Both the position numbers and the translations under genes were made by a program. This document shows, piece after piece, positions 1 to 3,700 of a DNA stretch of 64,000 nt (within the stretch, counting starts at the first letter, position 1; each line of letters opens with the position of its first letter). Source of the stretch: Octopus vulgaris (lineage: Eukaryota); NCBI GenBank assembly GCA_951406725.2, contig OX597843.1, positions 18,228,001 through 18,292,000 on the forward strand, written 5' to 3'. Below the pieces are notes generated by a model. It did not search any database, was not told the DNA's origin, and saw only the letters and a list, made by a program, of their open reading frames with translations.

Positions 1-651
1 CTTCTTCTTCGTTATCTGTATTCTTTTTCTTCTTCTTCTTCTTCTTCTTCTTCTTCTTCTTTTTCTTCTCCTTCTCCTTCTTCTTTTTCTTCTTCTCCTT
101 CTTCTTCTTCTGCTTCTTCTTCCTCTTCTTCTTCTTCTTCTTCTTCTTCTTCTTCTTCTTCTTCTTCTTCTTCTTCTTCTTCTACTTCTTCTTCTTCCTC
201 TTCTTCTTCTTCTTCTTCCTCTTCTTCTACTTCTTCTTCTTCTTCTTCTTCTTCTTCTTCTTCTTCTTCTTCTTCTTCTTCTTCTTCTTCTTCTTCTTCT
301 TCTTCTTCACCTCTTCTTCTTCTTCTTCTTCTTCTTCTTCTCCTTCTTCTTCTTCTTCTTCTTCTACTTCTTCTTCTTCTTCTTCTTCTTCTTCTTCTTC
401 TTCTTCTTCTCTTCTTCTACTTCTTCTTCTTCTTCTTCTTCTTCTTCTTCTTCTTCTTCTTCTTCTTCTTCTTCTTCTTCTTCTTCTTCTTCTTCTTCTT
501 CTTCTTCTTCTTCTTCTTCTTCTTCTTATTCTTCTTCTTCTTCTTCGTTATCTGTATTCTTTTTCTTCATTTCATTCTAAAGCCACGGCGTTTCATGTTG
601 CATCACGAATATTTTCCATCTAATCTATTTTACTTATCTTTACTTCTTTAG

Positions 652-723
652 AGATCTGCAAAACAACAGCATTTCGACCGTCGAAGAAGGTGCATTCATG
701 GGGCTTTCCAATTTAATAGGCTT
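652..723 (+). CDS. LRR exon (72 bp, phase 2-2): [24 protein letters not shown]
   Basis: ttctttag acceptor and gtaagt donor; typical 24-aa extracellular LRR consensus. Confidence 0.9.
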
Positions 724-3700
724 GTAAGTTCGTTTCGTTTGTTTTTCTTCTTAATTTTCTTCTTCTTCTTCTTGTTCTTCTTGTTCTTGTTCTTGTTCTT
801 CTTCTTCTTCTTCTTTTCTTCTACTCCTCCTCCTCCTCCTTCTTCTTCTTCTTCTTCTTCTTCTTCTTCTTCTTCTTCTTCTTCTTCTTCTTCTTCTTCT
901 TCTTCTTCTTCTTCTTCTTCTTCTTCTTCTGCTTCTTCTTCTTCTTCTTCTTCTTCTTCTTCTTCTTCTTCTTCATTTTCTTCTTGTTCTTCTTGTTCTT
1001 CTTCTTCTTGTTCTTCTTCTTCTTCTTCTTCTTCTTCTTCATTTTCTTCTTCTTCTCCTTCTTCTTCTTCTTCTTCTTCTTCTTTTTCTTCTTCTTCTTT
1101 CTCTTCCTCTCATTCTCAAGCCACTGTCTATGATAATGTATCGCAATAATTTTCCATATGATCTGTTTTACTCTTTCTTTACTGCTATAGAGTTCTGCAG
1201 AACAACAACATTTCAACCATCGAAGAAGGTGTATTCACGGGGCTTTCCAATTTAATAGGCTTGTAAGTTCGTTTCGTATGTTTTTTCTTCTTCATTTTCT
1301 TCTTCTTCTTCTTGTTCTTCTTGTTCTTGTTCTTGTTCTTTTTCTTCTTCTTCTTCTTCTTCTTCTTCTTCTTCTTCTTCTTCTTCTTCTTCTTCTTCTT
1401 CCAATTTAAACATATTGTAAGTTCGTTCAGTTTCTTGATACAATTTTCCGGAAGTAATAATTGATGCTGATATATAATCTCACAAATGTAAAACATTTCA
1501 GATTGCACTGAACAAAATCAATTCAAATTTGTAGAATGAACACGATTTAGGAAGATAGAAAGAGAATATAAGAGAGCGAGACATTGTGAAAGAAAGAGAG
1601 TGAATTTGAGAGAGAAAGTGAAATAATAGGAAACATTTAATGTTCCTTTATTGTAGTTATTTTGTTTCCATTCGGATCTCAATAAATCGTTTTTGATCTC
1701 CAAATTTCAATGACTTTTATATGAATTTGTATTTCTTCTCTCGGTTATTCTCTTCTGATGTCGAAGTTAATTCACTGACAACTTTTAGCTCTTGCTTCAG
1801 GATAATCAGTTCTCTTTTTGCTGTCTCCAAACATCATTTCTATCTCTTTTACTTTCTGTTGCTGGGACGTATAAGGATTTGCTTCTTTGCACGCAATAAG
1901 CATCATTACATGACTTTTGGTCTTCCGTAAAGCAGTTATGTTCTTCTCTGTCTTCAAAACCCATGATGGTACTTCCTTTGTTGTTTCGGTTTTGTTTACC
2001 TTCTCAATGTCATTAATGTCCTGCTTTGCAGTAGTAACCAGAGTATATAGACTGGCGTTAATTGTTTAGTATGTGGGTTCATCACACTGCTATAAATACT
2101 CACTACCCATTTCGTTAACAGCTTTTCATACCGTATCTGGTATGTGTATGTATGTATGTATGTATGTATGTATGTATGTATGTATGTATGTATGTATCTA
2201 TCTATCTATCTATCTATCTATCTATCTATCTATCTATCTATCTTTGTATCTATCTATCTATCTATCTATCTATCTATCTATCTATCTATCTATCTATCTA
2301 TCTTTCTATCAGTCTATCTATCTGTCTATCAATCTATCTATCTATCTATCTATCTATCTATCTATCTATCTATCTATCTATCTATCTATCTATCTGTCTG
2401 TCTGTCTGTCTATCTATCTATCTATCTATCTATCTATCTATCTATCTATCTATCTATCTGTCTATCTGTCTGTCTGTCTGTCTGTCTGTCTGTCTCTCTC
2501 TCTCTATCTATCTATCTATGAAACGAATATCTCTTCCCCCTCTCTCTCCCTCTCTCTGTCTAATCTAACGAATTTATCTGACAAGTGAATATGTATAACG
2601 TTTCATTGATTTTTAGGCAACTTATTTGGTGTCAATTGTTGTCCATATATTAACCAGTATTTCAGTATCTTCAGTTAACTACTCTTTCACATATCTACTA
2701 TTTAAATGTTAATGATTTTAACTTCATGAGAAGACCTTCAATGTGTGTCTAATTGTAATATTAACAGATTTGAATAGCAACCAGAGGAGGACGGAATATA
2801 TATTATATCATGTCCACAACGGTAGCAGTTTCCTTATCACTTTGTTGTTTAGAAGACTGCTAATGAAACGATTGTAGACATTAATTAGTTCTGTATCATA
2901 TCTCTGTTCTCATTAGGGTAATGCTACAAAGTAACTGGCATGTACCAGTTTTATACATTGTAAAATGGATTTAATTTAACAGCGTTTCTTGAGTAAGTTT
3001 GTACTCTGAAATAATATATATCTCATATATGACTGACGTACTTTACGGTACTTTAGTTTAATACGTGGGACTTTGCAGGTTTTCTAGAATTCGAATTATA
3101 TACAACCTTCAAGTAGTATTTCCAACAACATTGAGCCTGTGAGTGTATGGACTGATATTATAAAGGATATACAGAGTGTCCATAAACAACCCTTATAATT
3201 TGAAAGATTCAGGAAGAATAGAAATAAGGATAACTCAGCAAGTTGCATGCAACCAATGGGACTCACGTAGAAATGTTCTTATGTTTCTAATAAAGAACCG
3301 CTAAGTTACGTCGACGTAAACAACCCAAGACCTGTTGACAAGAGTGTTGGGGGATAAACACAAAAAGCAAATACACACGCATATATACGACGGACCTCCA
3401 CACAGTTTCCGGTCGCAAATTTACTCACAGGGCTTATTCGACCCAAGGTTATAGTAGACGTCGCTTACCCCAGGTGGCGCACAGTGCTACTAAGGAATCC
3501 ATGTCTGTGACAAGCAATCGTTATGCCACAGGGCCATACCTGTGCCTACATGGAAAATAATATTTCTATGATAGATGAGAATGTTGTATAGACCCCATGA
3601 TATGCACATAACAGAGTCTCGTTGTTGTGTCATTTTTATATTTTATCATCTTCCATCTTTTGTTGTTGGGGGTTTCACAGAAGATTTTCTCCTAGCTTAG

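Follow-up and report, generated by a model that had tools for sequence, protein, structure and literature searches.

The genes for variable lymphocyte receptors (VLRs) are incomplete and are filled in somatic cells from donor cassettes that flank them, and Dscam is diversified by mutually exclusive choice within exon clusters; among adhesion G protein-coupled receptors (GPCRs), ADGRG6 has a SEA domain and ADGRA has N-terminal leucine-rich repeats (LRRs). To our knowledge, no antibody-like receptor is known in cephalopods. In the LRR-ROCO genes of Ectocarpus, one 72-nt exon encodes each 24-residue LRR (Zambounis et al., PMC3341825); recent paralogues are nearly identical outside the LRR domain and have 13 versus 17 exons, and the genes recombine both internally and with one another, contain inactivated exons and, commonly, antisense exons within introns, and are under positive selection on the concave face (PMC3341825). 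In human NLRP3, frame-preserving LRR exons permit skipping that alters the binding surface (PMC6642158). Group 3 of Ritschard et al. [quoted passage not shown] The window analysed here, 64,000 nucleotides of Octopus vulgaris DNA (contig OX597843.1; G000:C30:18228001-18292000, where C30 is the contig of the focal gene), begins within an array of LRR exons, one exon per repeat, in a gene of an octopus LRR-adhesion GPCR family. Such arrays have likely been diversified in the germline by unequal crossing-over and by gene conversion, both within paralogues and between them; positive selection is inferred to act on their concave face.

Two 72-bp exons noted in a sequence-only reading of the window (652-723 and 1191-1262) are indeed bounded by AG and GT, in phase 2/2, and start 539 bp apart; they differ, as that reading had it, at 7 nucleotides, five of which are non-synonymous (D/V, S/N, V/I, A/V and M/T), and the intron ends of about 80 bp said to be homologous are acceptor flanks of about 81 bp with 61 of 80 aligned bases identical. 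The D/V difference, assigned to a concave-face x position, does lie at a core concave site, and the remaining four of five changes lie elsewhere; because only this one change of the five sits at a core concave position, the exon pair alone is uninformative on selection. The long CTT tracts described around the exons exist as degenerate CTT over 1-1110 and 1285-1401, interrupted rather than pure. The array was predicted to continue upstream, and 22 further cassettes were found there, reaching G000:C30:18205688, so that the two exons are cassettes 23 and 24, the last of a 24-cassette array of 23.6 kb. The part of the array inside the window consists of the following features:

1-569, plus strand: interrupted (CTT)n tract on the 3' side of the intron that separates cassettes 22 and 23
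570-651, plus strand: A-type acceptor flank of cassette 23
652-723, plus strand: LRR cassette exon 23 of 24, 72 bp, phase 2/2
724-1108, plus strand: short a-type donor flank, then (CTT)n tract
1109-1190, plus strand: B-type acceptor flank of cassette 24
1191-1262, plus strand: LRR cassette exon 24, chimeric (B acceptor, a donor)
1285-1400, plus strand: final (CTT)n tract of the array
1401-1733, plus strand: remnant of a deleted cassette, with a 16-nt exon tail identical to cassettes 21/22, a donor site and a 330-bp b-type donor flank; 3' end of the array

Twenty-three of the 24 cassettes are intact, with 16 distinct sequences among them; the other is 73 bp long, frameshifted and has a weak acceptor, and four exon-tail remnants are also present in the array. 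The cassettes carry four types of flank in variable order, and the unique parts of the flanks end at CTT tracts. Across the tracts there are eight distinct donor-to-acceptor adjacencies, at least five of them new with respect to a linear ancestor, and junctions between unlike cassette types were found inside pure CTT runs. One tract is joined directly to an exon tail, at window position 1401, where the tail of the deleted cassette (1401-1416) is fused to the tract via TTCC microhomology. Outside the tracts there are three junctions, namely a microhomology join of 5 bp within unique intron sequence, the chimera of exon 24 and, near 1733, the 3' end of the array. Cassettes 23 and 24 have different flank types, and the chimera of B-type acceptor and a-type donor in cassette 24 is, as judged from its sequence, a crossover or conversion inside the exon. 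Cassettes 2-5 and 6-9 form a 3,239-bp block duplication with 2 differences in 1,256 unique bp (99.8% identical); outside this block, cassettes differ from the nearest neighbour of the same type by 3-27 bases.

The LRR C-terminal cap (LRRCT) exon of the gene, used as a query, gave 61 matches among 64 candidates in the genome, which is a lower bound on the number of paralogues. Twenty-eight LRR regions were fetched, with short spans (up to about 52 kb) preferred, so that long arrays are under-sampled; 25 were used, two gap-broken parts being left out of correlations and one region (C2:152.5) being dropped as it has no LRR exon, and the count for C5 is a lower bound. The copy-number variability proposed for these receptors holds between paralogues: clean LRR exon counts range from 3 to 24 over the 25 gene regions, and closely similar paralogues differ by up to 18 cassettes. 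The paralogue on C8 has 6 cassettes versus 24 in the focal gene, with 93-97% identity in most aligned blocks outside the array, and 12 genes of the C31 type, with closely related LRRCT exons, have 3-22 LRR exons. Although the focal LRRCT exon groups with genes of C29, C9 and C10 (support 98/97, from a single exon of 159 columns), the focal cassette flanks are 88-92% identical to those of C31-type genes, versus 70-75% for neighbouring introns. This pattern suggests that cassettes were transferred or converted between subfamilies, or that the flanks are under unusually strong constraint. Two exons are identical between different C31 genes, and broken cassettes are frequent across the fetched regions. 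Close matches that bear species names are all from Octopus; relatives in scallop, abalone and dogwhelk have the same layout with a short LRR region. In public annotation, the family is hidden by automatic labels such as slit-like, TLR5, chaoptin, decorin-like and ADGRG6-like.

The next paralogue, 150 kb downstream (G000:C30:18377603-18417716), has 22 LRR exons of several types, from which two public models take different subsets (11 repeats in one, 9 in the other). The nearest sister gene appears to lie in three distant pieces of C30 (15.70, 10.81-10.86 and 19.70-19.74 Mb) split by 100-N gaps, and one of its breaks falls inside the CTT-rich array, which suggests that the sister gene is mis-scaffolded and that such arrays break assemblies. 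Antisense cassettes occur in 1 of 28 regions, beside a gap: at G000:C5:141.880-141.886 Mb, four antisense cassettes mirror four sense ones, either as an inverted duplication or as a fold-back artefact. At G000:C10:6.78 Mb, a gene with almost no CTT carries a duplicated block of two exons, the terminal LRR exon among them.

Diversity among the cassettes is concentrated at concave positions x2, x3, x5, x7 and x8, which were taken from the LRR consensus and fixed after the alignments had been viewed; the tests are counting tests on short, recombining, non-independent exons. For the 16 unique focal cassettes, pairwise pN is 0.43 at these positions and 0.067 elsewhere, with a pS of 0.14. Tree-free minimum numbers of changes per site in the focal gene are 1.86 at concave, 0.25 at other and 0.69 at synonymous sites (P=0.004 versus synonymous; 2e-8), and framework positions are under purifying selection. 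The per-position comparison that the sequence-only reading had called for gave the same direction in all four other genes (P 0.0003-0.02), so that amino-acid change is in excess at concave positions in 5/5 genes tested. There are 182 distinct concave signatures among 218 cassettes. In an AlphaFold model of relative P0030, x3-L4-x5 lies on the strand, and the intron splits the L4 codon halfway along the concave strand (x2-x3 | x5-x7-x8); because the intron cuts L4, junctions remix both halves of the binding strand. These substitution counts point to positive selection on the concave binding face.

In the mechanism favoured here, the (CTT)n tract would be an old, inherited part of a duplicated intron unit, serving as a universal joint through which unlike cassettes are reordered because it is the sole near-perfect homology common to all cassette types. 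The 180-600 bp of exon plus flank could recombine without a CTT tract, so the tracts likely help and are not required, and the recombination is likely of the ordinary inherited kind. Each deletion, reordering or in-frame skip would yield a new concave strand surface because the L4 codon is cut in mid-strand, and in-frame skipping likely adds isoform variety. The receptor would likely recognise a variable, putative ligand, microbial or on a cell surface, and signal through the 7TM domain.

Compatible with this mechanism, and possible if improbable as the main account, is the view that the tracts persist mainly as splicing elements, their sense CUU runs tuning stochastic skipping to give a combinatorial ladder of solenoids. 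On the sense strand the tracts are pyrimidine without exception; they stop 85-124 nt short of the acceptor in 23/23 intact focal cassettes and are kept in divergent subfamilies; in other genes, however, the distance from tract to acceptor runs from 59 to more than 1,000 nt. The 24 public runs listed consist of contigs, none of them recorded as RNA; contigs of two runs guessed to be RNA join the tail of one cassette directly to the start of the next. Cassette-to-cassette splicing thus occurs at the family level, the joins seen being of paralogue types and not of the focal copy; the exact sequence of cassette 23 was not among the run pieces listed, and the longest matching contig has the cassette type of the sister gene. 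Contig depth (flank versus unique 515 versus 122 in X6, 150 versus 72-78 in X5, 143 versus 87-120 in X8) is not a copy number and was not used as one. Cassette-skipping isoforms, which had been proposed as a check, are annotated in 24-residue steps in three O. sinensis genes: one has 13 isoforms of 337-409 aa with 12 distinct cassettes, a second is listed with 7, of 477-525 aa, and a third with 5 that each lack one 24-residue repeat, which in two of them is a unique one. Examined with Dscam-type mutual exclusion in mind, annotated isoforms vary in both the number and the choice of cassettes. These ladders and the functional skipping of LRR exons in human NLRP3 (PMC6642158) agree with a splicing role, but the O. 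sinensis isoforms are predicted models, and near-identical exons may have produced mis-mapped junction reads in automatic annotation. An abalone relative (cluster P0132) also has isoforms 24 residues apart (1232 and 1208 residues), so that skipping may not need CTT; taken alone, these lengths hint that LRR skipping predates the octopus expansion.

Of about the same modest likelihood, and concerning the focal gene only, is the view that the array has become bloated neutrally in a copy that is dying, with part of its 24 cassettes owed to the assembly. The gene was mapped by homology, its LRRCT exon (12836-12993) matching Octopus proteins of which one is a full adhesion GPCR. The model has 45 exons over about 95 kb, with a signal/LRRNT exon 26.6 kb upstream, followed by the 24 cassettes, a terminal LRR exon, LRRCT, a Cys-rich (LU) domain, a SEA-like domain, GAIN/GPS and 7TM. 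An apparent exon at 3079-3138 shows no LRR pattern and was left out of the model. Downstream of the array, the window contains:

3908-3979, plus strand: terminal LRR exon, 72 bp, not of cassette type
12836-12993, plus strand: LRRCT exon, the family marker with 61 matches in the genome
16980-21386, plus strand: Cys-rich domain, predicted LU/three-finger fold, in two exons (16980-17071, 21203-21386)
27338-33827, plus strand: SEA-like domain in three exons (27338-27420, 30766-30818, 33670-33827)
34470-48307, plus strand: seven exons with a hormone-receptor-motif-like region (label inferred), GAIN and GPS (48158-48307, HL|TSF site kept)
49102-49216, plus strand: first transmembrane exon, with a 7-bp net deletion and frameshift
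53023-59213, plus strand: 7TM exons (53023-53143, 57237-57381, 59141-59213); two further exons lie just beyond the window end

The GPS is recognized as PF01825 in relatives P0003 and P0047, the latter 94.6% identical to the focal gene model, and the secretin-type 7TM domain as PF00002 (E 1.8e-37) in P0003, with homologous focal exons over 49102-64505. No family name was returned for the Cys-rich domain by a Pfam scan of relatives; the LU label is a prediction from middling Z-scores, the domain of close relative P0046 folding like LU/three-finger proteins (Z 6.5, rmsd 3.5, 66 aligned to Prod1). The SEA-like label comes from the predicted secondary structure of relative P0030 and a weak Pfam SEA match in an abalone relative. 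In P0030, the LU-like domain is tandemly duplicated. The SEA-like exons (27338-33827) are 79-90% identical to the two nearest paralogues, with one exon unmatched, versus 93-99% for neighbouring exons, and O. sinensis models P0002 and P0047 omit them; from these comparisons, the SEA-like region is a possible second swappable module. On the minus strand at 11300-12050, in the intron before the LRRCT exon, the sequence reads like a decayed reverse-transcriptase (LINE-type) fragment, which is an impression only.

The focal copy does not have an intact 7TM frame: its first transmembrane exon carries the 7-bp net deletion relative to 3/3 aligned paralogues, with a stop after residue 1284. Non-synonymous to synonymous differences upstream of the frame break are 58:14 versus the C8 paralogue and 37:12 versus the sister copy, which is near neutral. 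The sister copy has no match for the TM2 exon, and assembly gaps interrupt its array. The closest O. sinensis model also stops at the GPS exon. Judged from these sequences, the focal copy may be dead; it is a null allele, a pseudogene of recent origin or a form with the ectodomain only, and probably a null or ectodomain-only allele; the record count of 24 may therefore partly reflect relaxed selection. The frameshifted 73-bp cassette, the four exon-tail remnants and the block of 99.8% identity also fit the bloat account, whereas the 23 intact cassettes with their 16 distinct sequences and constrained framework, the 3-27 bases that separate same-type neighbours outside the one block, the 22 LRR exons of the neighbouring paralogue and the occurrence of the same cassette class in independent runs do not.

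It is rather unlikely that CTT/GAA tracts actively drive the system, with triplexes, breaks or stalled forks starting the recombination that expands and contracts the arrays, which is the strong form of what the sequence-only reading had proposed. Runs of (CTT)4 or more cover 47% of the array; in the remainder of the gene (67 kb) their share is 0.03%, and in 154 kb of flanking sequence 0.00%, so that their presence at the array is not due to chance. Over 27 LRR regions there are 1,206 (CTT)6+ versus 5 (AAG)6+ runs on the sense strand, with CTT runs present in 26 of the 27 (sums made by hand), and in 7/7 genes, divergent subfamilies included, CTT is specific to LRR introns (1.3-41% of LRR regions, versus 0-0.5% after LRRCT). 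Among pairs at an LRRCT distance of 0.10 or less, the median difference is 5-6 exons for 67 CTT-rich pairs, versus 0-1 (strict count) or 0-4 (HMM count) for five CTT-poor pairs, a contrast between about two and three independent clades that is confounded with how similar the cassettes are. The C31-like array has its 5' boundary in the first tract, and in yeast long GAA runs promote fragility and crossovers (PMC6983365).

Other comparisons argue against such a role. Enrichment of junctions in the tracts was rejected, since the tracts, at 63% of the array, hold 6/9 mapped junctions, which is no excess over their length (P=0.56). Scaling of LRR exon count with CTT content was likewise rejected (rho 0.13, P 0.54, n=25), and mean counts are 9.7 in CTT-rich and 9.0 in CTT-poor genes (P 0.85). 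The gene at C29:18.91 has 14 LRR exons and a recent two-exon duplication without any CTT. An excess of recent duplicates in CTT-rich genes was rejected once the focal gene was removed (25/121 versus 15/90); within-gene exon similarity does rise with CTT (rho 0.65), confounded by clade. The longest pure run per array intron is only 18-213 bp (6-71 triplets), in tracts that are interrupted, and the uniform strand of CTT is explained by descent alone. What finds support in the proposal is a contribution of the tracts to recombination, from the junctions within them, their specificity to LRR introns and the faster change of CTT-rich clades, few of which are independent; a role as the necessary or main driver is not supported.

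The most far-reaching view is also unlikely: a dedicated variable-receptor system of at least 60 adhesion GPCR genes, in which CTT hinges let cassettes be reshuffled among alleles and paralogues before combinatorial splicing, a new binding strand being made at each junction. Its repertoires would differ between individuals, and possibly between cells, and would serve immune recognition or the self-recognition of arms, suckers and nerve cord; if it were true, it would provide a GPCR counterpart to VLRs and Dscam. Somatic assembly in the manner of VLRs, by copying cassettes from a donor pool, is very improbable: hypervariable concave residues set in an invariant framework, homology shared at the bounds of the cassettes and exchange between loci are in its favour, but the genes are complete in the germline with cassettes that are ordinary spliced exons, the focal gene being a complete 45-exon model, and no free-standing pool was found, 92/92 exact matches of a 29-nt donor-flank pattern (one pattern of one subfamily, placed by coordinates) lying in or beside family LRR arrays.

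Array anatomy, count variation among paralogues, chimeric and truncated cassettes, the four-cassette block duplication and the excess of concave change are direct observations. Several points weigh against germline recombination with concave-face selection as the explanation of them. The evidence of variation comes from comparisons between paralogues; the focal gene is frameshifted, with a near-neutral ratio of non-synonymous to synonymous differences; and the block of cassettes 2-5 and 6-9 could be a false duplication of the assembly. The identity of flanks between subfamilies could stem from purifying selection on splicing elements rather than from conversion. The selection tests use short recombining exons in alignments seen before the positions were chosen, and the isoform ladders may be affected by the mis-mapping that near-identical exons invite in predicted models.

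Expansion of these receptors was already known, and the family-wide cassette system in octopus is real. In this large receptor family, expanded in octopus, genomic signs of variable recognition (turnover in count, cassette exchange and concave-face selection) are coupled to GPCR signalling; the family is likely the one whose expression is described from the nerve cord of the arm, from suckers and skin, and from gills (PMC6408891). The coexistence of CTT-rich and CTT-free members offers a natural test of whether GAA/TTC tracts speed the evolution of exon arrays. Two limits apply: the principle has already been described in brown algae, and the focal copy may be dead. No earlier account of LRR cassette arrays in octopus was found in the literature searched, in which PMC6408891 alone was relevant, subscription papers and the supplements of PMC6408891 aside.

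The loose analogy with variable LRR receptor systems drawn in the sequence-only reading extends to structure and variability and not to the mode of assembly. The octopus receptors resemble VLRs in having a solenoid of 24-residue LRRs, a variable number of repeats and a hypervariable concave face on a constant framework (PMC3341825 and PMC10199209); they differ in having complete genes with spliced exons, in showing no donor pool among the matches of the one flank pattern, and in being GPCRs. NLRP3 differs as an intracellular sensor, for which cassette-number turnover and concave hypervariability are not described in the available part of PMC6642158. GAIN/GPS and 7tm_2 domains are shared with ADGRG6 and ADGRA, the SEA domain with ADGRG6 and the N-terminal LRRs with ADGRA, whereas CUB/pentraxin and Ig domains were not detected in the octopus family, which has an LU-fold domain after the LRRs. 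By its features rather than by a tree, the focal family appears to fit group 3 of PMC6408891: relative P0015 carries a Death domain (PF00531), and the named close matches are all from Octopus. The available part of that report contains no exon-cassette arrays, count variation or microsatellites, whereas the family here has at least 61 loci and a signal on LRR concave codons.

The comparison with Ectocarpus is the closest. Differences are that its proteins are intracellular ROCO GTPases of a brown alga and those of octopus are cell-surface GPCRs of an animal (Pfam scans of octopus relatives found GPS and 7tm_2 and no Roc-COR GTPase domain), that antisense exons are common there, that the range of counts is wider in octopus, and that the available part of PMC3341825 gives no microsatellite link. 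Shared with the alga are the symmetric 72-nt exon for each repeat, similar paralogues with differing counts (in octopus, 24 versus 6 at 93-97% identity), recombination within and between genes, and positive selection on the concave face, seen in octopus by counting tests. With four of the five tested features of Ectocarpus exon shuffling present in the octopus array, the algal genes are its closest known system.

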